A stretch of DNA of 64,000 bases. Origin: Pseudomonadota bacterium. Its GTDB lineage: Bacteria > Pseudomonadota > Gammaproteobacteria > Ga0077536. The notes beneath the pieces were generated by a model. That model searched no databases. It worked only from the letters and a program-made list of their open reading frames with translations, and was not told the origin of the DNA. This document shows, piece after piece, positions 25,142 to 48,497 of this stretch (its first letter is position 1; each line of letters opens with the position of its first letter). A program made the translations under genes and the position numbers. The DNA is taken from the NCBI GenBank assembly GCA_016719885.1, contig JADJYF010000001.1:414150-478149 (forward strand), read 5' to 3'.

Positions 25142-25228
25142 GTAGGTGCGAGTTCATTCGCACATTGATCGGCGGGCCTCCAGCGCTGGGCGCGGCTCGA
25201 ATGTGCGAATTAATCCGCACCTGCAATT
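25142..25228. repeat. Nested-palindrome intergenic repeat element, family A (degenerate copy)
   Basis: Left arm taggtgcgagttcattcgcacattg and right arm gaatgtgcgaattaatccgcacctg are inverted copies of each other and flank a roughly 40-bp GC-rich loop. The same element occurs at 27044 and 41924. Confidence 0.7.
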
Positions 25229-25282
25229 ACGTTCGCTGTTCAATTGATGCGCGCCTTCGCGCGCGCTGGAGAGGGGAAGAAC

Positions 25283-26188
25283 ATGGCAAGCCCGCAAGCG
25301 GAAGCAATGAAGGATTTGTATCGTGGCTGGCTGGCCGTGATGGCGGCCAATCCCGAACTCGGCCTCGATGGTACGCGTGACCTGTTCGAGCACTGGGGTG
25401 ATTTGACCACCGACCCCGGTGGCGTCGATTACCTCGAGGTGAATGCCGGCGGTGTGCAATGCATGTGGGCGGTGCCCCATGGTTGCGCCGAGGATCGCGT
25501 GGCCCTGTGCACCCATGGCGGTGGCTACGTCGCGGGTTCGATGTACTCCCATCGCAAGATGTTCGGCCACATCGCCAAGGCCATCGGTTGCAAGGCGCTG
25601 ATCGTGCATTTCCGGCGTGCGCCCGAACACCCGCATCCAACCCCGGTGGAGGACACCGTCGCGGTCTATGCATGGCTGCTCGAGCAGGGTTACAAGCCGG
25701 AACATATCTGCACCACCGGCGATTCCGCGGGCGGTGCGCTGTCGACCACCGTGCTGCTGGCGGCGCGTGACAAGGGCTTGCCGCTGCCGGTCGCGGCCAT
25801 GCCGATGTCGCCCTGGTATGACATGGAAAGCCTTGGCGAATCGCTGAAGACCAATGCCGCCAAGGACTGCCTCGCCAATGAGTCCATGGTCAAGACCATG
25901 GCGGCGACCTTCCTCGGCGGCGCGTCGCCGGTCGACCCGCTCGCCAATCCGCTCAAGGCCAATCTCGAGGGCTTGCCGCCGATCTACATCCAGGTCGGTG
26001 GCGATGAAACCCTGCTCGATGATTCCCTGCGTTTCGAAAAACTGGCGCGGGCGGCGGGGGTCGATGTGCGTTGCGACGTGTTCGCCGAGATGCAGCACGT
26101 GTTCCAGTTCATGGCCGGTCGCGCGCCGGAGGCGGATGACGCCATCGCGCGCATGGCCGCCTGGGTCAAGCCCAAGCTCGGGCTTTAA
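25283..26188 (+). CDS. Alpha/beta-hydrolase esterase/lipase of the hormone-sensitive-lipase (family IV) type
   Basis: Oxyanion-hole HGGGY motif, nucleophile pentapeptide GDSAGG, downstream Asp/His. Confidence 0.85.
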   Translation: MASPQAEAMKDLYRGWLAVMAANPELGLDGTRDLFEHWGDLTTDPGGVDYLEVNAGGVQCMWAVPHGCAEDRVALCTHGGGYVAGSMYSHRKMFGHIAKAIGCKALIVHFRRAPEHPHPTPVEDTVAVYAWLLEQGYKPEHICTTGDSAGGALSTTVLLAARDKGLPLPVAAMPMSPWYDMESLGESLKTNAAKDCLANESMVKTMAATFLGGASPVDPLANPLKANLEGLPPIYIQVGGDETLLDDSLRFEKLARAAGVDVRCDVFAEMQHVFQFMAGRAPEADDAIARMAAWVKPKLGL

Positions 26189-26244
26189 ATCGGCTTGCGC
26201 GCGTCGCAGGCGCATTCAAACTCAGTGATGGAAAAAAGTATTCG

Positions 26245-27027
26245 ATGAATAATCCCGCACACGACCCGCGTTCGGTATTCGATCTCACGGGCAAGCGCAT
26301 CCTCGTCACCGGCGCATCCATGGGGCTCGGCAAGCGTTTCGGCTGGACGCTGGCGCGGGCCGGCGCCGAGGTCATCCTGGCGGCGCGCAGCGAAGACAAG
26401 CTGCGTGAACTGGCCGACAGCATTGCCGCGTTCGGCGGCAAGTGCGTATGCGTGGCGCTGGACGTACGCGACCGCGCCGCGATCCGTGACACGGTGGCGA
26501 GCATCGAACAGGCCGGTCCCATCGACGTGCTCGTCAACAACGCCGGCATCGCCATCGTCAAGGCGCCCGAGCGCTACCAGGATGACGATTGGGACAATGT
26601 CTACGAAACCAACCTACGCGGGCCGTGGGTGTTGGCGCAGGCCATCATCCAGCGCTGCCTGAAGGACGGGCGGCCGGGCAACATCGTCAATATCGCGTCG
26701 ATCCTGGGCATGCGCCCGCTTGGACATATCGCGCCTTATGCTGCAGCCAAGGCCGCGCTCATCAATCTCGGCCGCGAGCTGTGCGTGGACCTCGCCGGCC
26801 GCGGCATCCGCGTCAATGCGCTCGCGCCGGGCTATTTCGAAACGGAAATGAACCGCGACTGGCTGAAGTCACCGGCCGGCGAACGTCTGCGGCAACGCAT
26901 TCCCACCGGCCGCTTCGGTCAACCGGAGGATCTGGACGGCGCCATCCTGTTCCTGGCCTCGGACGCCTCGGTGTTCATGAACGGCCAGGTGCTGACCATC
27001 GACGGTGGGCATACCGCGGGGCTGTGA
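26245..27027 (+). CDS. SDR family oxidoreductase
   Basis: TGASMGLGK cofactor motif, NNAG, and catalytic YAAAK (YxxxK). Confidence 0.9.
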   Translation: MNNPAHDPRSVFDLTGKRILVTGASMGLGKRFGWTLARAGAEVILAARSEDKLRELADSIAAFGGKCVCVALDVRDRAAIRDTVASIEQAGPIDVLVNNAGIAIVKAPERYQDDDWDNVYETNLRGPWVLAQAIIQRCLKDGRPGNIVNIASILGMRPLGHIAPYAAAKAALINLGRELCVDLAGRGIRVNALAPGYFETEMNRDWLKSPAGERLRQRIPTGRFGQPEDLDGAILFLASDASVFMNGQVLTIDGGHTAGL

Positions 27028-27043
27028 CGCGAACAAGCATGGT

Positions 27044-27132
27044 ACCTGTAGGTGCGAATTCATTCGCACATTGTTGGCGGGCTCACACGCCCGGCATGGC
27101 CATTCCAATGTGCGAATGAATTCGCACCTACA
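27044..27132. repeat. Nested-palindrome intergenic repeat element, family A
   Basis: taggtgcgaattcattcgcacattg ... caatgtgcgaatgaattcgcaccta: perfect 25-bp inverted arms, each arm itself a near-palindrome (gtgcgaat/tc/attcgcac), separated by a 39-bp GC-rich loop. Confidence 0.8.
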
Positions 27133-27149
27133 GCGCCACACCTGATGCG

Positions 27150-28172
27150 TTATACCGTCCACACCACCAGGCGCCAATCCAGCACGGTGCTTTCTTCGTA
27201 GCTCTTCCCGTCCGCCGCGGCGCGCTTGGCAAAGGTCAGCGCGTGCAACTCCATGAGCTTGCCGCCGGCCGCTACCGGCGTTTCGCTGGTCACCGTGAAC
27301 TCGGTGCGGATGATGTCTTCTTCCAGCACCGGCGCGGTGTGTTCGCAGCCCTGCCAGCCGATGAGACCGAGCAGGTTCGGCAGCGCGCGCCCGATTTGCG
27401 CGAGCGTAATGGAGATGGTGTGACCACCGTAGACCAGGCGCTTGCCGAGATAGCTGCGCGAGGCGTCGGTGTGGGTGAAGGCGATGTTGCCGGTGATGCG
27501 CACCAGTTCCGGGGCGCAGGTCACGGTGTCCTGCGGACCGATCACGACGCGGTCGCCAACGCTAAGCGCCGGAGCCGGTACCTTGTACTGCTCTGGCGCC
27601 ATGGCCGCGAGGTTCCAGCCGCGCGGCACGGCGTCGATCAACTGCGCATCCTCGAGGCGCTCCGGGATCCAGTCGAATGAATCGTTCTTGCCGGTGTCGG
27701 CATTGGCATCGCGACAGGGGATCATCGGGCAACGCCAGTACTGCATCACGCGCTCGCCGTGCTGGTTGGTGGTGTCCATTTCCAGCGCCACCATGCCGGT
27801 CGCGTCGCGGCCGGGCTTTACCTTGTTCTGCCTGAGGCCCACCACCTTGGTGGTGGTGGTCAGGGTGTCGCCCACGAACACCGGCGCCAGCAGCAGCAGG
27901 CCGCGGTAGAAGAGGTTGCCCTTGACCTGTTGCGAGGCGAACGTGGTCTGGCCGTTGACCAGGTTGATGACCATCATCGGATGCACCAGCGAACGCGCGT
28001 CGCCGGTCACGGCCTGTGACAGGTGACGGTCCAACGGCAAACGCATGCGGTCACCGGTCACCGACTGGTAGAAGGCGGTGTGGCCCTCGGTCACGGTCAC
28101 GGCGGGCGCCGCGAAAACCTGCCCGACGTGGAAGTCCTCGAAGTAGGGACCGTCAATATAGTGTTCGGCCAT
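27150..28172 (-). CDS. MaoC-like double-hotdog dehydratase (mesaconyl-CoA hydratase-like family)
   Basis: About 340 aa with two hotdog halves; the N-terminal half begins MAEHYIDGPYFEDFHVGQVF... Confidence 0.7.
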   Translation of the reverse strand: MAEHYIDGPYFEDFHVGQVFAAPAVTVTEGHTAFYQSVTGDRMRLPLDRHLSQAVTGDARSLVHPMMVINLVNGQTTFASQQVKGNLFYRGLLLLAPVFVGDTLTTTTKVVGLRQNKVKPGRDATGMVALEMDTTNQHGERVMQYWRCPMIPCRDANADTGKNDSFDWIPERLEDAQLIDAVPRGWNLAAMAPEQYKVPAPALSVGDRVVIGPQDTVTCAPELVRITGNIAFTHTDASRSYLGKRLVYGGHTISITLAQIGRALPNLLGLIGWQGCEHTAPVLEEDIIRTEFTVTSETPVAAGGKLMELHALTFAKRAAADGKSYEESTVLDWRLVVWTV

Positions 28173-28271
28173 GATCCTCACCCTGGCTGTGCGGCGCTTG
28201 CGGCCGCTCGTGGTTGTCCGTCCGCCGCGCGAAGCCGCGGACCCGAAATAGATGCGCGGGCGTGAAGCGCC

Positions 28272-29385
28272 TCAGCGCGATGCAAACTCCGCACGCAGCG
28301 CCGCGCCCTGTTGGTCTAGCGCCGGCACCGCGGCGTGGCTGAGCACGTCGCCGGTGCGTCGGATCAGCGAGACCGTGTGTCCGCCGGCTTCGATTTCCTT
28401 GCGCTTGAGGGCCGGATGTTTCTGCAGGCCGCCGATGTCGTTGATGCTGCCGCAGGCGATGCCGGCGCGGTTGAGTTTCAAGGCAAGCTCGGCCTGCGTG
28501 TAACGCGCGAACACCGCTTCCATGTCGGCCCGCAGCGCATCGCGATTCTCGACGCGCAGCACGTTGCTCCGGTAGCGCGGGTCGTCGGCCATCTCCGGTC
28601 TTTCGAGACCGTCGCGGCACAGTTGCACCCATTCGCGGTTGTTCTGGATGACGACGAAAATCGGACCGTCCTTGGCGGCGTAGGCGCCGTAGGGCGCGAG
28701 CTGCGCATGGTCCATGCCGGTGCCGGTCAGCATCTTGCCGGTGTATTCGAGGATCGCGAGCGGCACCGCCATCCATTCCGACAGCACTTCGAACAGCGAC
28801 AGCTCGACATGCGTACCGACGCCACTGCCGTGCCGCGCATAGAGCGCCTTCAGAATCTCGCCATAGGCGGAAAGGCCGGTGGAGATGTCGCAGATCGAGG
28901 CGCCGACCTTGCTCGGCTGGCCGGGCGCGCCGGTCACGGAGCACAGGCCCGTCTCGGCCTGGATCAGGGCATCGTAGGCCTTCATGTCGGCGTAGGCGCC
29001 GGTCGTGCCATAGCCCGAGATGCTGCACATCACCAGGCGCGGATTAAGTGCGTGCACGGCCGCGAATCCGAAGCCGAGCTTGTCCACCGACCCCGGCTTC
29101 AGGTTCTGGATGAACACGTCCGCGCGTTCCAGCATGCGCCGCAACAAGGCGGCGTCTTCGGCGCGGGTGAGATCGACCACCAGCGATTCCTTGCCGCTGT
29201 TCAACCACACGAAGTAGGCGCTCTGGCCGTGTATGGCGCTGTCGTAGGCACGCGCGAAATCGCCTTCCGGACGCTCGAGCTTGATGACGCGCGCCGCCCT
29301 CGGCGAGCAGGCGCGTGCAGTAGGGCGCGGCCACCGCTTGCTCGAGGGAAACGACCAAGAGATCGGACAGGGGCAATGTCGACAT
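28272..29385 (-). pseudogene. Family III CoA-transferase (CaiB/BaiF-like) interrupted by a frameshift near 29285-29295
   Basis: The N-terminal 60 aa (MSTLPLSDLLVVSLEQAVAAPYCTRLLAEGGAR) lie in one frame (ORF 29044..29385) and the remaining 312 aa in another (28272..29210). Adding one base in the run gagggcggcgcgcgtcatc restores ...LLAEGGARVIKLERPEGDFARAYDSAIHGQSAYFVWLNSGKE.... This may be a real mutation or a sequencing error. Confidence 0.7.
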
Positions 29386-29482
29386 GGCTATGGGCTACTC
29401 AACGCAGTGCAAGGGCCGGGGAGGCTGACGGACGCTCGTGGCCATGACCGGCATGGGCGCGGCGACCGCCAGCTTCCTGCGC

Positions 29483-30648
29483 TCAATAGGCGCGCGGCAG
29501 TTCGAGCTCGTGCTCGGCGATGTAGGAAAGGATGAGATTGGTCGAGATCGGCGCGATGCGGTACAGGCGCGATTCGCGGAACTTGCGCTCGACGTCGTAT
29601 TCCTCGGCCACGCCGAAGCCGCCATGGGTCTGCATGCAGGTGTCGGCCGCTGCCCACGCCGCTTCCGAGGCCAGCATCTTGGACAGGTTGGCGTAGGTGC
29701 CGGCATTGCCGCCCGACTCGTAGATGCGGCAGGCTTTCTCCAGCACCGCCTCGGCCGCTTCGGTCTGCGCGAAGGCCTGGGCGATGGGGAACTGGATGCC
29801 CTGGTTCTGGCCGATGGGGCGCCCGAACACCACGCGCTCGCGCGCGCATAGTCCGAGGCCTTCTTGATGAACCAGCGCGCGTCACCGATGCATTCGGCCG
29901 CGATCAGGATGCGCTCGGCATTCATGCCCGACAGGATGTAGCGGAAGCCCTTGCCTTCCTCGCCGATCAGGCTGTCGGCCGGGATCGGCACGTTGTCGAA
30001 AAAGATCTCGGTGGTCGAGTGGTTGATCATGGTGCGAATGGGATTGATGGTCATGCCATTCTTCTTCGCTTCGCGCATGTCGATGAGGAACACCGACAGG
30101 CCATCGGCGCGCTTGGCGACCTTGTCCTTGGGCGTGGTGCGCGCCAGCAGGATCATGAGGTCCGACTGCAGCGCGCGCGAGGTCCACACCTTCTGGCCGT
30201 TGACGATGTACTTGTCGCCATCGCGCACCGCGACCGTGGTGATGCTGGTGGTGTCGGTGCCGGCGGTGGGCTCGGTCACACCGAAGGCCTGCAGGCGCAA
30301 CTCGCCGGAGGCGACGCCGGGCAGGTATTTCTGTTTCTGTTCGGCACTGCCATGACGCAGCACCGTGCCCATGGTGTACATCTGCGCGTGGCAGGCGCCG
30401 GCGTTGCCGCCGAATTCATGGATGGCTTTCAGGATCTCGACGCCCATGGAAATCGGCAGGCCGCTGCCGCCGTATTCTTCCGGGATCAGCGCGGCGAGCA
30501 GGCCGAGTTCGGTCAGACGGTCGACGAATTCCTTGGGATATTGACGCTCGCGGTCCTTGGCGCGCCAGTATTCGCCGGCGAATTCCTCGCAGACCTTTTT
30601 CACGGTGTCACGCAGTTGCGAGACAATTTCCTGGTGTTCGTCAGACAT
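29483..30648 (-). pseudogene. Acyl-CoA dehydrogenase interrupted by a frameshift near 29838-29850
   Basis: The N-terminal 270 aa (MSDEHQEIV...ARWFIKKASDYAR) are in the frame of ORF 29395..31056; the C-terminal 116 aa (VFGRPIGQNQGIQFPIAQ...YIAEHELELPRAY) are in ORF 29483..29833. The junction is inside gcgcgcgcgagcgcg, and removal of one GC dinucleotide restores DYARERVVFGRPIGQ. Confidence 0.7.
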
Positions 30649-30758
30649 GCTTGTGCTTCCACGCTTGAATGCTGTGGCCGGCGAGGATAGCCCACCGGCG
30701 GTTGGAAAACGAACGGCAGCGGCTCGTGGCCACTGCCGTCGGCAACTCGTGATACGAG

Positions 30759-31607
30759 TTATTTCAGCGCCAGGATCTTGTCGAGCACCGGCATCAGGTA
30801 GCGGTTGAACACATCGGGATTTTCGCTCATGGGGAAATGCCCGATTTCCTCCATGATGATGCACTCGGAGTTCTTGGTATTGCGCGCCGCTTCCTCGGTC
30901 ATTTCCGGGGTGCAAGCGAAATCGTAAACGCCGGTCATGTAGTACATCGGCACCTTGCCCGACAGCTGCTGGGTCTTGCCGCGGAAGTCGTGGTCGAAGG
31001 AGTAGAAGTACAGATCCCCCTTGAAGATACCCGGACCGCCCTGGGAGTAGTACCACCAGGTTTCCCAGCGATACTTGTCCGGGCTCTGCGGCGCCATCAG
31101 GCCGAATACCGAAGTGGCGCAGACCTCACCACCGTGGATGTGCGAATGACGCAGCCAGTCGAGATGCCAGCCCGGCGACCATTCGCAGGCTTCGACCGCG
31201 ATCAGCGCCTTGACGTCGTTCTCGTATTCGGCCGCCAGGTGCAGGCAGATGTTGCCGCCCATCGAGCTGCCCATGATCACCGGCTTGTCGAGGCCGAGCT
31301 CGCGGCAGAACGCCATCAGGAGGCCTGAGTAGTACTTGGCAGTGAGCTTGTACTCTTCCTCTTCCTTGTACCAGTCATAGGGCGGAATGGACTTGCCGTG
31401 GCGGGGCAGGTCCAGCGCGATGACGCGGAAGTTCTTGTTGATGGCCGGGTCGCACAGCTGGTGGCGCCATTCGCGTCCATCGGTGCCGGCGGTGTGCAGG
31501 CACACCATCGGAATGCCCTGGCCGGCTTCCTCGTAGTAGATGCGGTATTCGGTGCCTTCGAAGGGCACCCAGATGTAACGGCCAACTATCGGTTCAATTT
31601 TTGCCAT
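30759..31607 (-). CDS. Alpha/beta-fold hydrolase
   Basis: VCLHTAGTDGREW...VIALDLPRHGKS (HG oxyanion region) and a GSSMGG nucleophile elbow. Confidence 0.8.
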   Translation of the reverse strand: MAKIEPIVGRYIWVPFEGTEYRIYYEEAGQGIPMVCLHTAGTDGREWRHQLCDPAINKNFRVIALDLPRHGKSIPPYDWYKEEEEYKLTAKYYSGLLMAFCRELGLDKPVIMGSSMGGNICLHLAAEYENDVKALIAVEACEWSPGWHLDWLRHSHIHGGEVCATSVFGLMAPQSPDKYRWETWWYYSQGGPGIFKGDLYFYSFDHDFRGKTQQLSGKVPMYYMTGVYDFACTPEMTEEAARNTKNSECIIMEEIGHFPMSENPDVFNRYLMPVLDKILALK

Positions 31608-31626
31608 GTCAAATTCTCCCTTGCGC

Positions 31627-32004
31627 TCACACTTCGCGCATGCGGTCGAGCGCCCAGCAGAGCGCGCGCAGGTTCTGCCACAGGACCATCTGGTCGCCTT
31701 CCAGCGTCAGGCGCCCATGGAGCGGATGCGCCATGGCCCAGATATCGTTGTACATCGGCGGCGGAACCTTCTGGCAGAACTTTGCCCACGATTCAGCCGG
31801 GCCACGAATGGCAAGCTGGTAGCAGGTCTCCGGGCCGAGCGTGTCGGTGAACTCCGCGAGTTTGCCCTTCTGAAATGAAACGACGTATTGCTTGTCGCCG
31901 AACCCGAAAAGCAGATCTGCGGTCAGGTGCTTGCCGATCCATTTCATCGGACCGTTGCTGTTGACCGCGTCCTGCCACTTCTTGACCCAGGCAGTATCGA
32001 ACAT
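31627..32004 (-). CDS. Small SCP2-like (sterol-carrier-like) domain protein
   Basis: 125 aa; pattern KKWQDAVNSN...ADLLFGFGDKQYVVSFQKGKL...GPAESWAKF resembles the SCP2/alkyl-sulfatase C-terminal lipid-binding fold. Low-complexity-free. Confidence 0.5.
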   Translation of the reverse strand: MFDTAWVKKWQDAVNSNGPMKWIGKHLTADLLFGFGDKQYVVSFQKGKLAEFTDTLGPETCYQLAIRGPAESWAKFCQKVPPPMYNDIWAMAHPLHGRLTLEGDQMVLWQNLRALCWALDRMREV

Positions 32005-32225
32005 GGTGTTACTCCCTCTTGGTGAGATGAACCCGGTCGCCGATGGGCCGCCAAGGACAGCCGGTACATGCGTGGGGGTCCGGTAATCGGGCGCCGTCAG
32101 GGCCTCGTGGGCACGGCCGGCGTCGCGTGGTGAGGGGGCAGCTTAATGAGTTGGCGACTGGGGTGTAAATGAGGGGATGTCGATAGGACCGATAAGAAAA
32201 TCTTATCGCCGCGCGCGGCCCGCGC

Positions 32226-33143: not shown

Positions 33144-33184
33144 GGGCGCGCGGCTCGCGGTGGCGGACGGTGATATCGCGCAAG

Positions 33185-34735: not shown

Positions 34736-34765
34736 AAAGGGCGGCGCAAGCCGCCCTTTTGTTCT
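34736..34765 (+). terminator. Rho-independent terminator after the hydrolase gene
   Basis: gggcggc-gcaa-gccgccc stem followed by ttttgtt. Confidence 0.55.
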
Positions 34766-34880
34766 TCCCCAACCGGGAGGCGGCTCGATCTTGAGGAAGT
34801 AGGCGTCCGCCGTGGCCCCTTGATGACTTTGATTTTGTTGTTGATGCCTCGATGAGGTTGGTGTTGCCGCCCTCGGTCGC

Positions 34881-34909
34881 CCCCCCCTCCCCGCCCCCCC
34901 CCCCCCCCT
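34881..34909. repeat. Homopolymeric C tract (C7-T-C4-G-C16)
   Basis: ccccccctccccgcccccccccccccccc in a 330-bp convergent intergenic region that also has G-runs (ggggg, ggggggg). Confidence 0.8.
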
Positions 34910-34965
34910 TCGACCCACGCGACCCGCCGCCCTCCACGCTACGGCGAGACCTTTTTTGATGCGTC

Positions 34966-37132: not shown

Positions 37133-37200
37133 TTGTGGGTCAGACTTCAGTCTGACGATTCAAGCGCGACCCGGAGTCAGACTGAAGTCTGACCCACAAC
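37133..37200. repeat. Nested-palindrome intergenic repeat element, family B
   Basis: tgtgggtcagacttcagtctgac ... gtcagactgaagtctgacccaca: inverted 23-bp arms, each a near-palindrome (gtcagact/tc/agtctgac), with a 22-bp loop. Sits immediately after the LLM stop. Confidence 0.8.
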
Positions 37201-37231: not shown

Positions 37232-38398
37232 ATGTCCGCCACCGCCTCCACTTTCAGCGCCGAAGACGAGAGCCAGATCCTCGACGCCATCGGTGCCTGG
37301 CTCAGGACCGAGGTCCGCCACCAGGTCAAACAGTTCGACCACGCCGACGAATACCCGCACGACATCGTGAAGCAGATGAAGGAGCTGGGGCTGTTCAGCC
37401 TCATGTACCCGACCGAGTGCGGTGGCCTGGGCATGAACGCCAGCGCCTATGCCAAGGTCATCACCTTGTTGTGCGAGACCTGGATGAGCCTCGCCGGCGT
37501 CATCAATACCCACATGATGCTCGGTCAGTTGGTGCTGCGCTTCGGCACCGACGAGCAAAAGGCGCATTTCCTGCCGCGTCTCGCCAGCGCCGAGCTGCAC
37601 GGCGTGTTGTGCCTCACCGAGCCCGATGCCGGCACCGATCTGCAGGGCATCAAGACCCGCGCCAAACGCGATGGCGACGATTACGTGCTGAACGGCTCGA
37701 AGATGTGGATCACCAACGGCATGTATGGCTCGCTGTACGCGGTGCTGACCAAGACCAACCCCGATGCCAAGCCGGCGCACAAGGGCATGACCCTGTTCCT
37801 GGCCGAACGCGGGCCCGGCTTCAACATCGACGGCAAGCTCAAGAAGCTCGGCTATCGCGCGGTGGAGAGCGTGGCGCTGAGCTTCCAGGACTACCGCATT
37901 CCGGCCTCGCGCATCCTCGGCGGCGAGGAAGGCCATGGTTTCCACCACGCGGTGGGTGGCCTCGAGCTCGGGCGCATCAACGTCGCCGCGCGCGCGGTGG
38001 GCGTGGCGCGCGCGGCGCTGACCGATGCCGTGCGCTACGCCCAGCAGCGCAAGACTTTCGGCAAGCCCATCTGCGAGCACCAGGCGATACAGATCAAACT
38101 CGCCGACATGGCGACGCGCGTGGAGGCGGCGCGCCTGCTGGTGGAGCAGGCGGCGAGCAAGTACGACCGTGGCGAGCGCTGCGACATGGAGGCCGGCATG
38201 GCCAAGCTGTTCGCCTCCGAAGCCGCGCTGTCGAACGCCACCGAAGCCATGCGCGTGCACGGCGGCTACGGCTATTCCCAGGAGTTCGACGTCGAGCGCT
38301 ATTACCGCGACGCGCCGCTCATGTGCATAGGCGAGGGCACCAACGAGATCCAGCGCGTGCTGATCGCGCGGGAACTCGTCAAGCGCTTCCCGGCCTGA
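37232..38398 (+). CDS. Acyl-CoA dehydrogenase
   Basis: ACAD N/M/C domains; CLTEPDAGTDLQ, WITNG, and C-terminal ...GEGTNEIQRVLIAREL. Confidence 0.9.
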   Translation: MSATASTFSAEDESQILDAIGAWLRTEVRHQVKQFDHADEYPHDIVKQMKELGLFSLMYPTECGGLGMNASAYAKVITLLCETWMSLAGVINTHMMLGQLVLRFGTDEQKAHFLPRLASAELHGVLCLTEPDAGTDLQGIKTRAKRDGDDYVLNGSKMWITNGMYGSLYAVLTKTNPDAKPAHKGMTLFLAERGPGFNIDGKLKKLGYRAVESVALSFQDYRIPASRILGGEEGHGFHHAVGGLELGRINVAARAVGVARAALTDAVRYAQQRKTFGKPICEHQAIQIKLADMATRVEAARLLVEQAASKYDRGERCDMEAGMAKLFASEAALSNATEAMRVHGGYGYSQEFDVERYYRDAPLMCIGEGTNEIQRVLIARELVKRFPA

Positions 38399-38404
38399 CG
38401 CGGC

Positions 38405-40826: not shown

Positions 40827-40836
40827 GCGGCGTACG

Positions 40837-41925
40837 ATGATCAACATCCTCATCGGCACGCGCGCGCAGCTCATCAAGATGGCGCCGGTATTGCTGGCGC
40901 TGGAACGCGGCGGGGTGAGCTACCGGCTCGTCATGAGCGGCCAGCATCACGCGACCATGGCCGAACTCCTGCACGAATTTGGCGTGAGCACACCGGCGGT
41001 GCATCTCTACGAGGGCCGCGAGATCACCGGCGTGGCGCAGATGGCGCGCTGGTTCCTGCACATGCTGTGGCGCGGGTGGCGTCAGCGTGAGCGCCTGTTC
41101 GCCCGTGCCGGCCGCGACGCGATGGTGGTGCACGGCGATACGGTGTCGACCTTGCTCGGCGCCTTGCTCGGGCGCGTGCTCGGCTTCGAAGTCGTGCACA
41201 TCGAATCAGGCCTGACGTCCGGGCGCTGGCGCGAACCTTTTCCGGAGGAGCTGACGCGGCGCCTGGTGTTTCGCCTCGCCCACCTCGCGTTCTGCCCCGG
41301 GCCGTGGGCAGCGGCCAACATGCGGCCGTTCACGGCCGAGGTCATCGATACCGGCGCCAATACCATCGTCGACGCGGTGCAGGAGGCAATGGGACGCTTC
41401 GAGCAGGCCGAGGTCAAGGCGCCCGACGCGCCCTACGCGGTGGTGTCCCTGCATCGCTTCGAGAACATCTTCGAAGCCCATCGTTTCGCTTTCATCATCG
41501 CCATGCTCGAACGCATGGCCTTGCGCATACCGCTGGTGTTCGTGTTGCATCCCGCCACGCGCCGGCAGGCCGAGAAATTCGATCTCTTGTCGCGTCTCGA
41601 AGACAACTCGAATATCACCCTGCTGCCGCGCATGACCTACATCCCGTTCCTGAAGCTCCTGTGTGGCGCGCGCTTCGTGGTGAGCGACGGCGGCAGCAAC
41701 CAGGAAGAACTGGCGTGGCTGGGCATCCCGACCTTGCTCATGCGTGGCGCCACCGAGCGCCAGGATGGATTGGGGGAGGGCGTGGTGGTCAGCAACTACG
41801 AGGCCGAGATCATCACGCGCTTCGTCGACGAGGTGCTGGCGGCGCCGGGCGAGCGGCGTGCGCATGCGCGCATGCCGTCACCGTCGGCGATGATCGCGAA
41901 GGTGCTGGCCGAGCGCTACCAGTAG
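40837..41925 (+). CDS. UDP-N-acetylglucosamine 2-epimerase (WecB) family protein
   Basis: GTRAQLIKMAPV, SGQHH, VHGDTVSTL, HIESGLTSG and PFPEELTRRL correspond to the conserved WecB motifs GTRPE-IKMAP, TxQH, HGDT, HxEAGLRT and PEExNR. Confidence 0.65.
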   Translation: MINILIGTRAQLIKMAPVLLALERGGVSYRLVMSGQHHATMAELLHEFGVSTPAVHLYEGREITGVAQMARWFLHMLWRGWRQRERLFARAGRDAMVVHGDTVSTLLGALLGRVLGFEVVHIESGLTSGRWREPFPEELTRRLVFRLAHLAFCPGPWAAANMRPFTAEVIDTGANTIVDAVQEAMGRFEQAEVKAPDAPYAVVSLHRFENIFEAHRFAFIIAMLERMALRIPLVFVLHPATRRQAEKFDLLSRLEDNSNITLLPRMTYIPFLKLLCGARFVVSDGGSNQEELAWLGIPTLLMRGATERQDGLGEGVVVSNYEAEIITRFVDEVLAAPGERRAHARMPSPSAMIAKVLAERYQ

Positions 41926-42069
41926 GTGCGAATTCATTCGCACACTTTCATGTCAGACTGAAGTCCGACCCACACGAAGAGGCCTTCTGTTGTGGGTCGG
42001 ACTTCAGTCTGACATGCATGGCGAGGCCGCTTGGAACCTGTTCGAGTGTGCGAATGAATTCGCACCTGG
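41924..42069. repeat. Composite repeat: family A arms enclosing a complete family B element (A-left, B, A-right)
   Basis: taggtgcgaattcattcgcaca - gtcagactgaagtccgacccaca ... tgtgggtcggacttcagtctgac - tgtgcgaatgaattcgcacct. Confidence 0.8.
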
Positions 42070-42102
42070 GGAAGGCGACGCGCCGTTCGAACCAGGTGCC
42101 GC

Positions 42103-42906
42103 TCAGCGGCCCTTGAACTCCGGCACGCGCTTCTCGAAGAACGCGTTCAAGGCTTCCATGTGATCCTCGGTCTGGTGCAGCGTCACCTGCAGCGCGGCCG
42201 ACATTTCCATGACTGAACCGAAGCTCGCCATGGTGCCTTCGCGCATGAGCTTCTTGGTCATGCGCAGCGCCTGCGGCGGCTGCACGCAGATCTTCTTTGC
42301 GAGCGTCTCGCAGTACGTCATCAGTTCCGCGTCCGGCACCACTTCCGATACCAGGCCCCATTCGCGCGCGGTCGGCGCGTCGATGAGATCGCCGGTGAAG
42401 AACAGCTGCGCGGCGCGTGACCAGCCGATCTGACGCGGCAACAGCCATGCGCCGCCGTCGCCCGGCAGCAGGCCGACCTTGAGGAAGGTCGCGCCGAAAC
42501 GCGCCGAGGCGGCGGCGATGCGGATGTCGCACAGCGATGCGACGTCGCCGCCGAGGCCTATGGCCGGGCCGTTGATGGCGCCCACCACCGGCACCTCGAT
42601 GTCCCACATGGCGTGGATGATGCCGTGGATGTGCTTGCGATAGTGATCGCGGATCTCGGCGGCCGAGCCGCCGAAGTAGCCGCTCTTGTCGCGCATGGCT
42701 TTCAGATCGCCGCCGGCCGAGAAGGCCGGCCCGGCGCCCGTCATGATCACGCAGCGCAGGTTCTTGTCGGCGTTGATGGCATCGGCCGCGGCGCGGAAAC
42801 GCGCGCCGTCGCCGGGCTGGCCGAGCGGGTTGCGCGAGTCCGGGCGGTTGATGGTGAGACGCGCGATGAGCCCGTCGATTTCCAGTGTCAGATCGTTGTC
42901 GAGCAT
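42103..42906 (-). CDS. Enoyl-CoA hydratase/isomerase (crotonase family)
   Basis: Crotonase fold with FSAGGDLK oxyanion motif and GGAW. Confidence 0.9.
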   Translation of the reverse strand: MLDNDLTLEIDGLIARLTINRPDSRNPLGQPGDGARFRAAADAINADKNLRCVIMTGAGPAFSAGGDLKAMRDKSGYFGGSAAEIRDHYRKHIHGIIHAMWDIEVPVVGAINGPAIGLGGDVASLCDIRIAAASARFGATFLKVGLLPGDGGAWLLPRQIGWSRAAQLFFTGDLIDAPTAREWGLVSEVVPDAELMTYCETLAKKICVQPPQALRMTKKLMREGTMASFGSVMEMSAALQVTLHQTEDHMEALNAFFEKRVPEFKGR

Positions 42907-42923
42907 GTTCGTCCGTCTCCGTG

Positions 42924-43976
42924 TCAGGCCGTGATGAGCGGCCAGATGCCGTCGCCACCTACATCGGCCGCGACGCGACCCAGGTATTCACCCCATTCGC
43001 CGGCGCCGCCGAATTCGGCGCGCCACGCCCACAGGCGGCGCGTGAGGAAGTGCAGGCCGTATTCATAGGTGAAACCAATCGCGCCATGTACCTGGTGCGA
43101 GAGGCGGGTGAGCTTTTCCACCGCCTCGCTGGCGCGGCACTTGGCCGCCGCGATCTCGAAGCGCGCGTTGCGTCCGCTTGGCGCCATGCCACGCTGGTCG
43201 AGGCCGACACAGGCGGCCATGGCGATGGCATCGACGGACGCGACCACGCCGGCCAGGTCAGCGAGGTAATGCTGGATGGCCTGGAAGCCGGACAGCGGTT
43301 TGCCGAACTGCGAGCGCTCGGCGCCGTACTTGAGCGCGAGATCCAGCGCCGCGGCGCCGGCGCCGGCGATCTGCGCGCTGCGCGCGAGTGCGCCCAGCCA
43401 ATGCACGCAATCGGGCGCCAGCGGCAGGGCTTGGCGCGTGATGACGGACGCATCACCGGACAGGCTGTCGCGCGGGTCGCGGCCGATGTTGTCCTCGGCC
43501 GCGACGGCGAGGCCGCTGGTGGCAGCGATGATGAGTTCCGCGCCCTCACCCTTGGCCGCGACGCCGACCAGGAAGTCCGCGTTGCGGCCCCAGGGCGTGC
43601 GCGCGTTGCTGAGCGTGAGCGTGGTGGCGCTCACGGCGCTCGCGGCGATGGCACGTGGCAGCAGCCCCGGCACGCCCGCAGGCAGTGTCGCGCCGGCCTG
43701 GCGCGCCAGCCATTCGGCGATGGTTGCTTCGACCACCGGCAAGGGCACGGCATGGCGACCGCAGGCGCGCAGTACCGGGTAGGCATCGCTCCAGCCGACA
43801 CCCATGCCGCCGGCCGCTTCGTCGGCCAGCACCTTGGGGATGCCTTGTTCGACGGTCTCGGCCCACAGCGCGGTGGGAAAGCCCTGCTCTTCGATGGCCG
43901 TCAGTTGGTCCCAACCCAGCCGATCGCCGAACAGGCGATTGACCGTGTCTTCCAGCATCTGTTGAGTTTCGTTCAT
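42924..43976 (-). CDS. Acyl-CoA dehydrogenase family protein (short, about 350 aa; second member of a tail-to-head ACAD pair)
   Basis: ACAD C-terminal helical domain (GAERSQFGKPLSGFQAIQHYLADLA). A 4-nt overlap (ATGA) with the upstream ACAD 43973..45139 resembles heteromeric alpha2beta2 ACAD pairs of steroid side-chain degradation. Confidence 0.75.
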   Translation of the reverse strand: MNETQQMLEDTVNRLFGDRLGWDQLTAIEEQGFPTALWAETVEQGIPKVLADEAAGGMGVGWSDAYPVLRACGRHAVPLPVVEATIAEWLARQAGATLPAGVPGLLPRAIAASAVSATTLTLSNARTPWGRNADFLVGVAAKGEGAELIIAATSGLAVAAEDNIGRDPRDSLSGDASVITRQALPLAPDCVHWLGALARSAQIAGAGAAALDLALKYGAERSQFGKPLSGFQAIQHYLADLAGVVASVDAIAMAACVGLDQRGMAPSGRNARFEIAAAKCRASEAVEKLTRLSHQVHGAIGFTYEYGLHFLTRRLWAWRAEFGGAGEWGEYLGRVAADVGGDGIWPLITA

Positions 43977-45139
43977 CGCACACCCATGCCTTTCGCGATG
44001 ATGCCGCGCAGAATTTCCGGCGTGCCGCCACGCAGGGAGAAGGACGGCGCAACCTGGATCAGCGAGCCCAGCACCTGTTGATATTCCGAACCATGGCCTT
44101 CGAGCGTCGGTTCGAGTTCGCACAATTCCTGCGCGAGGCCCGGCAAGGCCTGTTCGAACTGGCAGCCGAGATCTTTCACCACCGCCGCTTCGAGCAGCGG
44201 GTCCTGGCCCGCGTTGAGCTTGGCGGCGATGCTCAAGGACATGGTGCGCAGCGTCGCGGCCCATGCCACCTGCGTGCCGAGGCGTGCGAGGGTGGCGGGC
44301 GAGGCGTTGTCCTTCACCACGTCGATGAGCTTGCGCAGCAGGAAGAAGCAGGACAGGTAACGCTCGGGGCCGCTGCGCTCGAAGGCGAGCTCCTCGGTGA
44401 CCTGCCGCCAGCCCTGGCCTTCGGTGCCGAGCAACGCGTCGGGCGGCAGTTCGGCGTCGACGAAGGCGACTTCGTTGAAATTGCGGCCGCCGGCCAGGTT
44501 CTGGATGGTGCGCGGCGTGATGCCACGGGTCTTGCTCAAATCGATCAGGAACTGCGAGAGACCCGCATGCTTCTTGTTCGGATCGGGATCGGTGCGGAAC
44601 AGCGCGATCATGTAGTTCGCGCGGTGCGCGTTGCTGGTCCAGATCTTGGTGCCGTTGACTTTCCAGCCCGTGGCCGTGCGTTCGGCGCGGGTGCGCAGCG
44701 AGGCGAGATCGGAACCCGAATTGGGTTCGCTCATGCCGATGGCGAAGCAGGCCTTGCCGGCGGTGATGGCCGGCACGATTGCCTTTTTCTGCTCCTCGGT
44801 GCCGTAGCGCACCACCAGCGGGCCGCTCTGCCTGTCCGCCACCCAGTGAAAGGCGGTCGGCGCGCCGGCTACCAGGCTCTCCTCGACCACCACGTAGCGC
44901 TCGAGCGCGCTGCGACCGTGGCCGCCGTATTGCTTGGGCAGGGTCATGCCCAGCCAGCCCTTGGCGCCGAGCTTGGCCGAGAACTCGGCGTCGTAGGCTT
45001 CCCAGCTATGGCTGCGTTTGACCACCGGCACGTCGGCCAGGGCCTCCTTCAGGAAGGCGCGCACTTCGGCGCGCAGCGTTTCCAGCGAGGCCGGCAGGGC
45101 GGTCGGCTCGAAACGCAGCTTGTCTGCTACTGATGTCAT
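43973..45139 (-). CDS. Acyl-CoA dehydrogenase
   Basis: GMSEPNSGSDLASL, WTSNA and C-terminal ...LRGGTPEILRGIIA. Confidence 0.9.
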   Translation of the reverse strand: MTSVADKLRFEPTALPASLETLRAEVRAFLKEALADVPVVKRSHSWEAYDAEFSAKLGAKGWLGMTLPKQYGGHGRSALERYVVVEESLVAGAPTAFHWVADRQSGPLVVRYGTEEQKKAIVPAITAGKACFAIGMSEPNSGSDLASLRTRAERTATGWKVNGTKIWTSNAHRANYMIALFRTDPDPNKKHAGLSQFLIDLSKTRGITPRTIQNLAGGRNFNEVAFVDAELPPDALLGTEGQGWRQVTEELAFERSGPERYLSCFFLLRKLIDVVKDNASPATLARLGTQVAWAATLRTMSLSIAAKLNAGQDPLLEAAVVKDLGCQFEQALPGLAQELCELEPTLEGHGSEYQQVLGSLIQVAPSFSLRGGTPEILRGIIAKGMGVR

Positions 45140-45196
45140 GTGTGTTCCTTGTTGCTCGCACGACCGCTGACGGTCGTGACGCTGTCAGGCCTGGCT

Positions 45197-46267
45197 TCAG
45201 CCGCGCTTGCCCTCGACGTATTCCCAGGCGCGTTCGGCGAAACGCTCGACGATGTCGGTGGTGGACGGTGCGTCGGAACTCGCCGCCGTGCCGTCCTGCA
45301 CGCGCTTGATGATGCCCTGGTAAATAGCCGCCAGGCGCCACGCGGTGTAGGCGTTGTAGAACTCCATGTGCTTTATTTCCTTGCGGCCGGTGAGCTCGCA
45401 ATAGCGCGCGATGTATTGCGCCTGCGTGGGGATGCCCATCGCTTCGAGATCCATGCCGTCGAGACTGGATACGCGCTCATCGACCGCCGGGATCACCCAC
45501 GGCGCCATGTGGTAGCTGAAATCGCCGAGCGGATCGCCGAGCGTGGCGAGCTCCCAGTCCAGCACCGCGATCACGCGCGGCTCGGTGGGATGCAGGATCA
45601 TGTTGTCCATGCGGTAGTCGCCGTGGATCACGCACACCTCGTCGGACGGCGGAATGTTGTTGGGCAGCCATTCCATGAGCTTGTCCATGAGCGGGATCTT
45701 GGTGGTCTCGGACGACTTGTAGCCCTTGCTCCACACGTGGATCTGGCGCGCGATGTAATCGTTGGGCTTGCCGAAGCCTTCGAGGCCGATTTTCTTGTAA
45801 TCGAGCTTCTGCAAATCGGCCAAGGTCACCAGCATCGCGTCGTAGATGGCGGCGCGCTCGGCCGGCGTCGGGCCCGGCAGGTGCAAGTCCCACAGGATGC
45901 GACCGTCGACCATCTCCATGATGTAGAACATGGTGCCGACCACGCTCGTGTCTTCACACAGCGCATAGGCGCGCGGCACCGGAAAGCCGGCGCGGTAGAG
46001 CGCATCGATGACGCGGAATTCGCGATCGACCTGGTGCGCCGACGGCAGCAGGTTGCCCGGCGGCTTGCGACGCAGGACGTAGCGCTGTTTGGGCGTGACG
46101 AGCTGGTAGGTGGGGTTGGATTGTCCGCCCTTGAATTCGCGGACCGTCAGCGGTCCTTCGTAGCCTTCCACCTCGGCTTCCATGAACGCGGCCAGCTTGT
46201 CGATGGGGAAGGCGAGGTGCGCCTGCACCTCCTTGGTTCCGGAAAATTTCTCCTGTCGGGTACTCAT
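45197..46267 (-). CDS. Phosphotransferase (APH/choline-kinase-like) family protein
   Basis: Kinase-like Brenner motif HGDYRMDNMI and DWE; an ACAD-associated APH-like family. Confidence 0.8.
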   Translation of the reverse strand: MSTRQEKFSGTKEVQAHLAFPIDKLAAFMEAEVEGYEGPLTVREFKGGQSNPTYQLVTPKQRYVLRRKPPGNLLPSAHQVDREFRVIDALYRAGFPVPRAYALCEDTSVVGTMFYIMEMVDGRILWDLHLPGPTPAERAAIYDAMLVTLADLQKLDYKKIGLEGFGKPNDYIARQIHVWSKGYKSSETTKIPLMDKLMEWLPNNIPPSDEVCVIHGDYRMDNMILHPTEPRVIAVLDWELATLGDPLGDFSYHMAPWVIPAVDERVSSLDGMDLEAMGIPTQAQYIARYCELTGRKEIKHMEFYNAYTAWRLAAIYQGIIKRVQDGTAASSDAPSTTDIVERFAERAWEYVEGKRG

Positions 46268-46278
46268 GTCGCTCTCTC

Positions 46279-47502
46279 TCAGGTCGCCGACGGGCCGGCG
46301 ACGATTCCTTGGTCATGCAGGCGGCCGATCGCGGCGCTGTCGAGGCCGAGAACGTCCGCCAGGATTTCATCGGTGTGCTGGCCGACACGCGCGGCGGGGC
46401 GCGGCGGCTGACGTTCCATCTTCGAGAAGTACATCGGCGTGCCGCACACCGGGTAGGTGCCGATGCCGGGTTGTTCGATGTTGGAGAAGATCGGATTGTC
46501 CGGCGAACAGTCCGGGTCGTTCTCGACCAGTTCGCGCACGGTCTGGTACTTGTCCCAGCAGATGCCGCATTCTTCGAAGACCTTGGCGAGCTGCGCGAAG
46601 GGCTGCGTGGCGAACCACGGTTCGAGCAGCGCGCACAATTCGCGACGCGCGCTGAAGCGATCGCCCTCGTTGGCGAAATCGAGACCCATGCGCGCGGCCA
46701 GCGCGGCCACTTCGTTGCCGAGCCCGGTGGCTTTCAACAGGCCTTCCCACTGCTTGGCGCTGACCGCGATGATCATCACGCGCTGGCCGTCGCTGGACAC
46801 GAAGTCGCGGCCGAAGGCGCCATAGAGGTAATTGCCGTTGCGCCCGCGGGTTTCGTGGTTGACGTGGAGCTCGCCGATGAAGCCGAGATTGCCGACCGCC
46901 GCCAGGGCGACGTCGGCCAGCGCCAGCTTGACCTGCTGGCCTTCGCCGGTCAGACGACGATGACGCTCGGCGGCCAACAGGTTAATGGCGGCGAGATAGG
47001 CGGTGGCAATGTCCCACGCCGGCAGCACGTGGTTGACCGGACGCGGGTCTTCCTCGGGGCCGGTCAGGTAGGGGAAGCCGACCTTGGCGTTGACGGTGTA
47101 GTCGAGCGCGCTCGAACCGTGGCGGTCACCGACGATTTCGTGCTGGATGAGATCGGGGCGACGCGCGCTCAAGGCCTTGTAATCGAGCCAGCCGCGCGCC
47201 GGCAGGTTGGTCGAGAAGATGCCGCCGTTCTCGCCCGGCGCGCAGATGAGCTCGGTGACCAGTTCACGGCCGGCCGGCGCGCGGATGTCGACCGCGATCG
47301 AGCGCTTGCCCTTGTTCATTTCCGCCCAGTAGATGCTGGTGTCGTCCTTGGTGACCGGCCAGCGGTGATAGTCGATACCGCCGCCCAGCTGATCGAAGCG
47401 GATGACGTCGGCGCCGAGCTGCGCGAGGGTCATGCCGCACATCGGCGCGGCGATGAAGGCCGAGCCCTCGACGATACGCATGCCTTTCAGGATTGCCTGC
47501 AT
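46279..47502 (-). CDS. Family III CoA-transferase (CaiB/BaiF)
   Basis: N-terminal LKGMRIVEGSAFIAAPMCGMTLAQLGADVIRF and a catalytic Asp region. Confidence 0.85.
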   Translation of the reverse strand: MQAILKGMRIVEGSAFIAAPMCGMTLAQLGADVIRFDQLGGGIDYHRWPVTKDDTSIYWAEMNKGKRSIAVDIRAPAGRELVTELICAPGENGGIFSTNLPARGWLDYKALSARRPDLIQHEIVGDRHGSSALDYTVNAKVGFPYLTGPEEDPRPVNHVLPAWDIATAYLAAINLLAAERHRRLTGEGQQVKLALADVALAAVGNLGFIGELHVNHETRGRNGNYLYGAFGRDFVSSDGQRVMIIAVSAKQWEGLLKATGLGNEVAALAARMGLDFANEGDRFSARRELCALLEPWFATQPFAQLAKVFEECGICWDKYQTVRELVENDPDCSPDNPIFSNIEQPGIGTYPVCGTPMYFSKMERQPPRPAARVGQHTDEILADVLGLDSAAIGRLHDQGIVAGPSAT

Positions 47503-47511
47503 GGGAACTCC

Positions 47512-48372
47512 TCAGGGCGCGATGCGCGCACTGCCGTTGTTAAGCACCACCACCTTGCGCTCCAGCACCGAGGTGCGGAAATAGGCGATGCCGTCCTCGT
47601 TCCAGATCTCGGTGCGCAGCGTCTCGCCCGGCAGCACCGGGGATGAGAAACGCACGTTCAAGGTTTTCATGCGTCGCGCGTCGTAGTCGCAGCAGCTCTT
47701 GAGGATGGCGTGCATGGCCACGCCCAAGGTGCAGCGGCCGTGCAGGATGGGCCGTTCGAAGCCGGCGCCGGTCGCGACCGCGGGGTCGGCATGCAAGGGA
47801 TTCATGTCGCCGCACAGGCGGTAGATCAAGGCCTGGTTGAAGTTGGTCGCGAGATCGCACACCTGGTCGGGCGCGCGCTCGGGCGGCGCCGGCGGCGCGG
47901 GACGCGCCTGGCTCTTGCCGCCGAAGCCGCCGTCGGCGCGCGCCAGGGTATTCGAGCGCACCGTCGCATACAGGGTTTTGCCGTCAGCGCTGCGCAGTTC
48001 TTTCTTCAAGTACACGAAGCAGCCTTTGTCGGCGCCCCGGTCGACCACGTCTTCGATGATGGTTTCGCCCGTCACCGTGCCGGACGACGGCAAAGGCTCA
48101 TGGATTTCCAATGCCTCTTCGGCATGCAGCACCTGCTGCCAGTTGAACCCGTACTTGGGGTCACGCATCCAGAAACCGGGATAGGCGATGACCAGTGCGA
48201 GGGTCGGCAGCGTGCGCAATTCGGGCTCTTCGTAGACATACGGCAGTTGCTTGGGGTCGACCGCGTCGGCGCCGACACCCACCGCCAGCGCATAGAGGAT
48301 GACGTCCTTGATGCCGTAGGTCTCGGTCTGCTTGTTGATGACCGTGCCGATCAGTTCTGCGTGGTTCTTCAT
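47512..48372 (-). CDS. MaoC-like double-hotdog (R)-specific enoyl-CoA hydratase (Hsd4B-like)
   Basis: Two hotdog halves; C-terminal MaoC motif ...YRLCGDMNPLHADPAVATGAGFERPILHGRCTLG. Confidence 0.8.
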   Translation of the reverse strand: MKNHAELIGTVINKQTETYGIKDVILYALAVGVGADAVDPKQLPYVYEEPELRTLPTLALVIAYPGFWMRDPKYGFNWQQVLHAEEALEIHEPLPSSGTVTGETIIEDVVDRGADKGCFVYLKKELRSADGKTLYATVRSNTLARADGGFGGKSQARPAPPAPPERAPDQVCDLATNFNQALIYRLCGDMNPLHADPAVATGAGFERPILHGRCTLGVAMHAILKSCCDYDARRMKTLNVRFSSPVLPGETLRTEIWNEDGIAYFRTSVLERKVVVLNNGSARIAP

Positions 48373-48408
48373 CGGGCCTCCGAATTCACTTCAATGCTTG
48401 AATTCTTA

Positions 48409-48497
48409 TTGTGGGTCAGACTTCAGTCTGACATTTGCATCAGCGGCATGATGCCTTAACGAGGCTCCCCCAAGTCAGACCGAAGTCTGACCCACAG
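48409..48497. repeat. Nested-palindrome intergenic repeat element, family B
   Basis: ttgtgggtcagacttcagtctgac ... gtcagaccgaagtctgacccacagg with a 43-bp loop. Confidence 0.8.

Follow-up and report, generated by a model that had tools for sequence, protein, structure and literature searches.

Introduction

In the general description of the GTAG superfamily of repetitive extragenic palindromic sequences (REPs), which includes the REPs of Escherichia coli and Pseudomonas, the repeats are extragenic and carry a terminal tag (GTAG, sometimes GTRG or GTGG), a stem of 6–9 bp and a 2-nt TY loop (PMC3733652). According to the same description, sub-families differ by complementary stem residues, repeats are arranged as head-to-head dimers with 20–100 bp spacers, tail-to-tail dimers, grouped elements or hybrid dimers between families, and genes for REP-associated tyrosine transposases (RAYTs) are flanked by their own repeats (PMC3733652). 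Here we describe five intergenic elements, built from two families of such palindromes (A and B), in a 64-kb stretch of a gammaproteobacterial metagenome-assembled genome (MAG; GenBank assembly GCA_016719885.1, contig JADJYF010000001.1, positions 414,150 to 478,149). This stretch is referred to below as the window, and all arm, element and chance counts refer to it unless stated otherwise.

Inverted REP doublets that enclose a spacer and fold into one hairpin are termed REPINs (hairpin-forming pairs of REPs), and a genome may hold several REP groups, each near its own RAYT (PMC3116915). In Pseudomonas chlororaphis, the REPIN type was found replaced at an orthologous position, and RAYTs were suggested to modify or replace resident REPINs (REPORTH preprint, 10.1101/2024.10.14.618302). 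As far as the general features of the GTAG superfamily are described, the window elements share its tag, stem, loop, compensated sub-families, head-to-head, tail-to-tail and hybrid dimers, and extragenic location; their tag-outward doublets, with spacers of 19–41 nt, correspond both to its head-to-head dimers (PMC3733652) and to REPINs (PMC3116915). A and B are likened to the superfamily by these described features, not matched to its 24 numbered families (PMC3733652), and their host is a different one, a lineage of uncultured gamma/'Proteobacteria' MAGs found in samples of the wastewater type. Like published REPIN–RAYT systems, the window elements are mostly doublets of one family, with rare mixed ones, and persist for long at fixed sites; unlike those systems, they are known from 64 kb, and their own RAYT or RAYTs were not located.

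Two further systems invite comparison. The bacterial interspersed mosaic elements (BIMEs) of Enterobacteria have particular inter-REP motifs and the binding of IHF or gyrase as their defining features; one of the window elements, a composite, resembles them in its REPs of alternating orientation (> < > <) and its two REP types, but its palindromes are nested and do not form a tandem mosaic. With the IS200/IS605 insertion sequences the REP/RAYT system shares a transposase of Pfam family Y1_Tnp that acts on sub-terminal, single-stranded hairpins beside a short motif for guidance or cleavage and leaves no target-site duplication. From what is established for IS200/IS605 and TnpA-REP, a RAYT would bind a REP that has folded in single-stranded DNA, cut it at the tag and make no target duplication. 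REPs and REPINs, unlike IS200/IS605, carry no transposase of their own, and a RAYT is typically present as one chromosomal copy, with REPs around it instead of distinct left and right ends.

We put a probability of roughly 90% on the window elements being GTAG/GTGG-tagged REPs, mostly organised as REPINs, that are non-autonomous and served by RAYTs. The observations that carry this assignment are the anatomy of the arms, their recurrence beyond chance, stem changes that compensate each other, the location between genes, the flanking of RAYT genes elsewhere, the co-variation of stem and RAYT, and turnover at orthologous sites. The arm sequences are new and absent from the searchable literature (a search with 18-mer and 14-mer cores returned no relevant paper, its one match being an unrelated paper on keloids), while every architectural feature has precedent.

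Two families of tagged palindromes form five intergenic elements

The window contains 12 arms of 22 nt, half belonging to family A (GTAGGTGCGAATTCATTCGCAC) and half to family B (GTGGGTCAGACTTCAGTCTGAC). Four of the elements they form are inverted doublets, and the fifth is a nested cluster (A> B< B> A<):

A1, 25142–25224: decaying A REPIN with a 39-nt spacer; degenerate arms 25142–25163 and 25203–25224 (one and three mismatches, right tag now GCAG); between the co-directional genes DUF1329 and Abhydrolase_3, 41 nt past the stop of the former, with 58 nt left to the start codon side of the latter; fold −47.2 kcal/mol, z −6.1
A2, 27046–27133: perfect A REPIN with a 40-nt spacer; arms 27048–27069 and 27110–27131, within a perfect 28-nt inverted repeat (27046–27073 and 27106–27133); between convergent SDR and MaoC-like genes, 18–20 nt from each stop; fold −61.8 kcal/mol, z −10.3
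B1, 37133–37199: B REPIN with a 19-nt spacer; arms 37135–37156 and 37176–37197; between co-directional genes, 27 nt after the stop of a luciferase-like monooxygenase and 34 nt before the ATG of an acyl-CoA dehydrogenase; fold −45.6 kcal/mol, z −9.1
Composite, 41922–42069: A> B< B> A<; outer A arms 41922–41943 and 42048–42069, core B arms 41952–41973 and 41992–42013; between convergent Epimerase_2 and enoyl-CoA hydratase genes; fold −101.7 kcal/mol, z −14.5
B2, 48409–48497: B REPIN with a 41-nt spacer; arms 48411–48432 and 48474–48495 (one mismatch); flanked by genes that are both on the minus strand, 6 nt past the stop of an acyl-CoA dehydrogenase (48502–50187) and 38 nt before the start of a MaoC hydratase (47512–48372); fold −48.2 and −54.2 kcal/mol on the two strands

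Each arm begins with the tag (GTAG in A, GTGG in B) and one G, followed by a stem of 8 bp around a 2-nt loop, TC. All 12 are palindromic over the stem, with TC at the centre of one arm and GA in its partner. At 22 nt they fall within the range given for REPs (imperfect palindromes of 20–40 bp, stems of 6–13 bp and a very short loop), and the GTAG or GTRG tag that REPs bear at one end of the palindrome is present apart from two of the six A arms, where it has decayed to GCAG and CCAG. The two families are identical at 15 of 22 aligned positions; what separates them is the third base of the tag and three stem pairs, each of which is changed on both sides and therefore compensated. The 18-nt core patterns have six matches each, against an expectation from dinucleotide shuffles of 0.21 (A) and 0.03 (B), with no shuffle reaching six.

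The four doublets have the organisation of REPINs, with inverted REPs, spacers of 19–41 nt and single-hairpin folds at z-scores of −6 to −10. Taken over all five elements, folding energies run from −45.6 to −101.7 kcal/mol (z −6.1 to −14.5), each element forming a single long hairpin on either strand. Every flanking open reading frame (ORF) has Pfam support and all five elements are intergenic, as expected of extragenic repeats, each lying 0–41 nt downstream of a stop codon; the sole overlap with coding sequence is that of the Epimerase_2 TAG stop (41923–41925), which is also the TAG of the composite's GTAG tag. An earlier note on this DNA had placed A and B copies at these positions and had described palindromic arms differing at the central dinucleotide, long hairpins on either strand, and intergenic locations directly after stop codons. 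Read directly in the sequence, the 12 arms are where it put them, and the stems and centres, the computed folds and the Pfam-supported flanks bear out the rest of that description.

A scan of the window for further families of tagged hairpins showed A and B alone standing out, the remaining matches being short G+C-rich palindromes that apparently lie within long ORFs. No RNA family was matched in an Rfam gathering scan of the window. Exact-protein look-ups for 37232–38398 and 47512–48372 returned no record, and megablast of 25000–28200 against plasmids gave trivial Streptomyces matches alone, with no plasmid relative for that stretch.

The arms recur widely and their stems covary

We scanned one genome per species (GTDB representatives) with the degenerate pattern GTRGGTSMGAMTTCAKTCKSAC, which admits A, B and 126 other combinations and does not enforce pairing. 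At least 120 genome stretches matched. Among the matches listed (122 loci, including the relatives L001 and L002), none of the three variable pairs was broken in 171 of 173. Of the eight stems that pairing allows, seven occurred, and the unpaired types amounted to two singletons. Although the copies in this count do not represent independent events, the scarcity of unpaired types strongly indicates that conservation concerns the hairpin. The stretches listed came mostly from beta- and gammaproteobacterial MAGs and isolates with G+C contents from 40% to 71%, among them Gallionella, Sideroxydans, Lamprocystis, Halothiobacillus, Viridibacterium and Uliginosibacterium.

In isolate SJ420, a syntenic relative with 86% gene identity, A and B arms occupy at least nine separate blocks. 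REPs are typically dispersed in more than 100 copies per genome; set beside that figure are the 12 arms in 64 kb, the SJ420 blocks and the matched reference stretches. The earlier note had proposed a genome-wide pattern search; in the scan of reference genomes and in SJ420, its arm sequences recur at many other loci.

Some of the matches deserve separate mention. Two contigs of one MAG (L006:1727–1925 and L026:1238–1435) share one layout as well as similar flanks, with a B REPIN and, some 50 nt further on, an A REPIN that is half decayed; this suggests duplication of a larger segment. This MAG is labelled 'Klebsiella pneumoniae' ZE-13nov19-135 and has a G+C content of about 61%; for that G+C and REP content, the species label looks wrong. 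The exact family-A 22-mer was also present in L047, L086, L106 and L118, from a Desulfobacteraceae MAG (G+C about 45%), and in L041 and L069, from a Pelotomaculum MAG. Both MAGs are labelled as non-proteobacterial and have low G+C, and the match could reflect horizontal spread of RAYTs and REPs, strong constraint on the sequence, or contamination during binning.

RAYT genes in other genomes are bracketed by A and B-type arms

A connection to a transposase comes from a betaproteobacterial MAG (L037), in which ten exact A arms surround an ORF of 150 amino acids; one A doublet abuts its stop codon, and four direct and one inverted exact-A arms lie upstream. The product matches Pfam Y1_Tnp (E = 1.3e−9) and has both the HUH motif (HIHWLL) and the YxxxNP motif (YIAANPLRAGLV). 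It has 5,100 homologues at E ≤ 1e−10, many of them named in their sources 'REP element-mobilizing transposase RayT' or 'REP-associated tyrosine transposase'.

Using an alignment of 30 of these proteins as the query, we scanned metagenomes and obtained 80 RAYT loci. Among the loci whose flanking hairpins could be recognised, A arms flank the RAYTs at L123, L124, L127, L128 and L151; the B stem flanks that at L142 (GTAGGTCAGACTTCAGTCTGAC), and B-like arms those at L189 and L209 (GTGGGTCGGACTTCAGTCCGAC). The L209 RAYT, 75% identical to that of L189, has B-like tail-to-tail dimers on both sides, arranged like the core of the composite. Other RAYTs are flanked by further compensated stem variants, such as GTAGGGGCGAATTCATTCGCCC and GTAGGTCGGCCTTCAGGCCGAC.

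When 27 RAYTs were clustered by average linkage, they grouped largely according to the stem of the flanking REP, with A-flanked RAYTs together and '..CT TC' (B-like) RAYTs together; A-flanked L151 and B-like L126 fell between the clusters. This leads us to expect separate cognate RAYTs for A and B, as in other genomes with several REPIN families. Candidates for the cognate type are present in other genomes, with L037 for A and L142, L189 and L209 for the B type. The earlier note had proposed REP-like elements that are possible targets of a RAYT; the anatomy of tag, stem and loop, the exact A arms around the L037 gene and the B-type arms at the three other loci all support this.

REPIN families turn over at orthologous sites

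Proteins of the window occur in NCBI MAGs labelled 'Proteobacteria bacterium'. As close relatives we used L001 and L214 (GCA_016703575.1) and L002 (JGI 3300056827), with 98–99.9% identity in the flanking genes, and as farther relatives L208 (isolate SJ420, GCA_020849475.1; 86%) and L212 and L213 (both 82%). Given the presence of the elements in independent assemblies, an assembly artefact was rejected as the source of the repeats.

The A1 site holds an A REPIN in the window and in all five relatives compared, down to 82% gene identity, with conserved arms and diverged spacers, and B1 is conserved in L001, L002 and L208. At two of the five sites, A2 and B2, at least one relative carries the other family. 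The A2 site is occupied by A in the window, L001, L212 and L213; in L002 (L002:10821–10903; 97–99.9% identical in the genes flanking this site) it holds a B-like REPIN with arms GTGGGTGCAGACTTCAGTCTGCAC and a spacer that partly resembles the A2 spacer, and in L208 (L208:10838–10870) just one palindrome of 26 nt, GTGGGTCGGACTGAAGTCTGACCCAC, tagged on either side, the product that would be expected had a B REPIN collapsed between half-sites of its two arms. At the B2 site, GCA_016703575.1 (L214:~706–800) has an A REPIN in place of B; there the entire intergenic region differs, including the ribosome-binding site, while the coding flanks are conserved. Divergence between near-identical strains was concentrated at intergenic sites, REPIN sites among them. 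The comparison with relatives called for in the earlier note places elements at orthologous sites, with A1 retained down to 82% gene identity and the family changed at A2 and B2 in one or more relatives.

In L212 and L213 (2800–2880 in each), the right arm of A2 is interrupted by an internal duplication (GTGCGAATGAATTTTCAGAAATGAATTCGCA), an instance of arm decay by slippage.

The composite is a nested palindrome with an inverted centre in relatives

Within the composite, the four arms are spaced A> 8 nt B< 18 nt B> 34 nt A<. The 18 nt at its centre separate the 22-nt B arms, and 16 nt separate the flanking CACA and TGTG. The right A arm (42048–42069) is inverted and is the one whose tag has decayed to CCAG; the enoyl-CoA hydratase stop lies 33 nt past the right end of the element. 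The orientation of the REPs alternates, as in BIMEs. The GTGG tags of the two B arms point inward, forming a tail-to-tail dimer, a detail absent from the earlier note, whereas in the stand-alone B1 and B2 the tags point outward.

Removing the 62-nt B core leaves an A spacer of 42 nt, close to the 39–40 nt of A1 and A2, which favours insertion of a B tail-to-tail dimer into an A REPIN. From the spacer lengths, nesting of B within A is therefore plausible. The earlier note had B inserting into A or vice versa; the former direction agrees with the spacers, but the inserted unit would be a tail-to-tail dimer, not a standard B REPIN. A hybrid A–B dimer also occurs free-standing, as B>-7 nt-A< at another locus of SJ420 (L115).

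The composite is conserved in five relatives (L203–L207), in which its 16-nt centre is inverted: it matches the window at 15 of 16 positions as the reverse complement, against 8 of 16 when read directly. The sequence is CGAAGAGGCCTTCTGT within window positions 41974–41991 and ACAGAAGGCCTCTTTG in L203–L207 (for example L205:2283–2505, minus strand). This change is a small inversion of the hairpin loop, bounded by perfect 25-nt inverted repeats, and because these surrounding arms are perfect inverted repeats its breakpoints cannot be placed.

Alternative explanations

The position of the elements is compatible with a primarily regulatory origin. Rho-independent terminators, attenuators or hairpins that stabilise mRNA 3' ends, selected for that role and independent of any transposase, could lie where all copies do, shortly past stop codons, with two of them between convergent genes; the folds are very stable on either strand, A1 has been kept at its site down to 82% gene identity, and it is established that REPs of E. 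coli stabilise upstream mRNA. However, no U-tract follows any of the elements, and the one terminator-like site inside them (41926–41943) has a T-poor tail, ACTTTCATGT; in the scanned region as a whole there are six terminator-like sites, compared with a mean of 8.6 in shuffled sequence. The earlier suggestion of candidate transcription terminators finds no support on these two counts, and we rejected identity with intrinsic terminators since the combination of hairpin and U-run was not found. B1 and B2 are also unlikely to be strong terminators because the next gene begins 34–38 nt downstream of them in what seem to be operons, where such a terminator would be harmful. Elsewhere in the window, at 16583–16621 and 21665–21703, there are canonical bidirectional terminator-like hairpins with A-runs and T-runs on both sides (AAAAAAAACGGCGG...CCGCCGTTTT), which indicates that this genome does use U-tract terminators and that the REPINs are unlike them. 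Finally, dozens of taxa have the identical 22-mer beside genes that are unrelated, and RAYT genes are bracketed by it, a distribution that site-specific regulatory selection does not explain. We consider a primary regulatory role quite unlikely; a secondary, exapted one is compatible with the elements being REPINs.

Short, non-coding, repeated sequences with inverted-repeat ends also call to mind classical miniature inverted-repeat transposable elements (MITEs), deletion derivatives of DDE-type insertion sequences that move by cut-and-paste and leave a target-site duplication. Yet none of the five elements is flanked by a direct repeat, on which ground this class was rejected; each terminal repeat is itself a tagged stem-loop, the form of substrate used by HUH/Y1 enzymes; and Y1_Tnp was the sole transposase found beside the arms, with no DDE transposase with matching ends seen. 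This makes a MITE origin very improbable. Equally improbable is the idea that the palindromes are operators of a transcription factor controlling a fatty-acid/acyl-CoA catabolic cluster. All five elements do lie within 23 kb of catabolic genes, and a gene for a LysR-type regulator is nearby, but they are downstream of genes and not in promoters, their arms are also found in contexts and taxa that are unrelated, over a G+C range of 40% to 71%, and the families swap at a site with no change in the neighbouring genes. Wrongly positioned and far too widespread, they were rejected as operator sites.

Proposed maintenance by RAYTs and its weak points

If the elements are RAYT-served REPs and REPINs, a single-copy HUH/Y1 RAYT (TnpA-REP) would recognise the tagged hairpin in single-stranded DNA, cut at the tag and then copy or maintain the element; the absence of target duplications agrees with such action as inferred from IS200/IS605 and TnpA-REP. 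A and B would represent two specificity variants of one REP type, equal in tag position, 8-bp stem and TC loop and different in the three compensated pairs, and we predict a separate RAYT paralogue for each family, with its gene lying beyond the window. Elements would build up in 3' intergenic space, where they are presumably tolerated.

At the level of RNA, studies of E. coli REPs indicate that transcribed REPINs impede 3'–5' exonucleases and that those no more than about 15 nt from a stop codon can lower translation of the upstream gene. Transcribed window REPINs, as very stable hairpins lacking U-tracts, may similarly act as barriers to 3'-exonucleases or as processing sites rather than as canonical terminators, and the copies 0–6 nt from a stop codon (the composite at 0 nt, B2 at 6 nt) could dampen translation of the upstream gene.

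Several points weigh against this assignment or limit its reach. A search of all ORFs of the window and of every fetched locus of the close relatives, by phmmer with an E. coli RayT sequence and by a hidden Markov model of 30 RAYTs, found no RAYT; the RAYT search proposed in the earlier note thus succeeded in other genomes, where A and B-type arms bracket the genes, and failed in the window and the relatives' loci. Two homologues considered as the lineage's own RAYT, P0146 and P0203, were traced to other genomes (GCA_015657895.1 and GCA_053998555.1), and none of 10 further homologues was tied by accession to the source MAGs. The RAYT mechanism in the source organism is argued by analogy, and the RNA-level effects are likewise extrapolated from studies of E. 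coli REPs. The copy number given for the source genome is that of the 64-kb window. Among strains 98–99% identical, no presence/absence polymorphism was seen, which gives no sign of recent transposition; the observations that bear on the REPIN as a replicative unit are the family replacement at two of five sites, the collapsed palindrome in L208 and the loop inversion of the composite. The two family swaps, moreover, could result from homologous import from another strain and not from RAYT action, because both span the whole intergenic region.

Implications

For annotation, the 23 kb concerned hold ordinary REPs and REPINs, which should be masked or labelled as such and not as island boundaries, regulators or novel RNA genes. 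The earlier idea that the repeats mark boundaries of a catabolic island found no support, identical arms being present beside unrelated genes in many taxa. What the locus adds to known REP biology is an unbiased demonstration, across many taxa, of a stem evolving through compensated changes, the finding that REP stem variants largely follow RAYT clades, and two examples outside Pseudomonas of REPIN replacement at an orthologous site together with hairpin-loop inversion. The replacement and inversion cases bear on the idea that RAYTs modify or replace resident REPINs.

A bolder reading is that A and B form a still active system of two RAYTs and two REPINs in an uncultured wastewater proteobacterium, with one family overwriting the other in situ. 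Its basis is that, at two of the five sites, strains whose flanking genes are at least 97% identical have different families, that one spacer looks partly retained and that the centre of the composite has flipped. We regard this as unlikely. If it were true, with RAYT conversion proceeding by cleavage at the shared GTRG tag and hairpin-templated copying through which the two arms stay matched, the locus would offer a tractable case for the co-evolution of REP specificity and RAYTs and for competition of REPIN populations for the same sites.

Other features of the window

Two other features of the window were noted. A segment of about 190 bp (34761–34951), located directly after a terminator-like hairpin and containing a C-rich run (34872–34900), is absent from L001 and L002 and may be an assembly artefact or the remnant of an inserted element. 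Between 60728 and 63857, diverged direct repeats of 40–50 nt (D13–D15, 80–88% identical) recur 162–423 nt apart, a pattern that suggests a large repetitive coding region.

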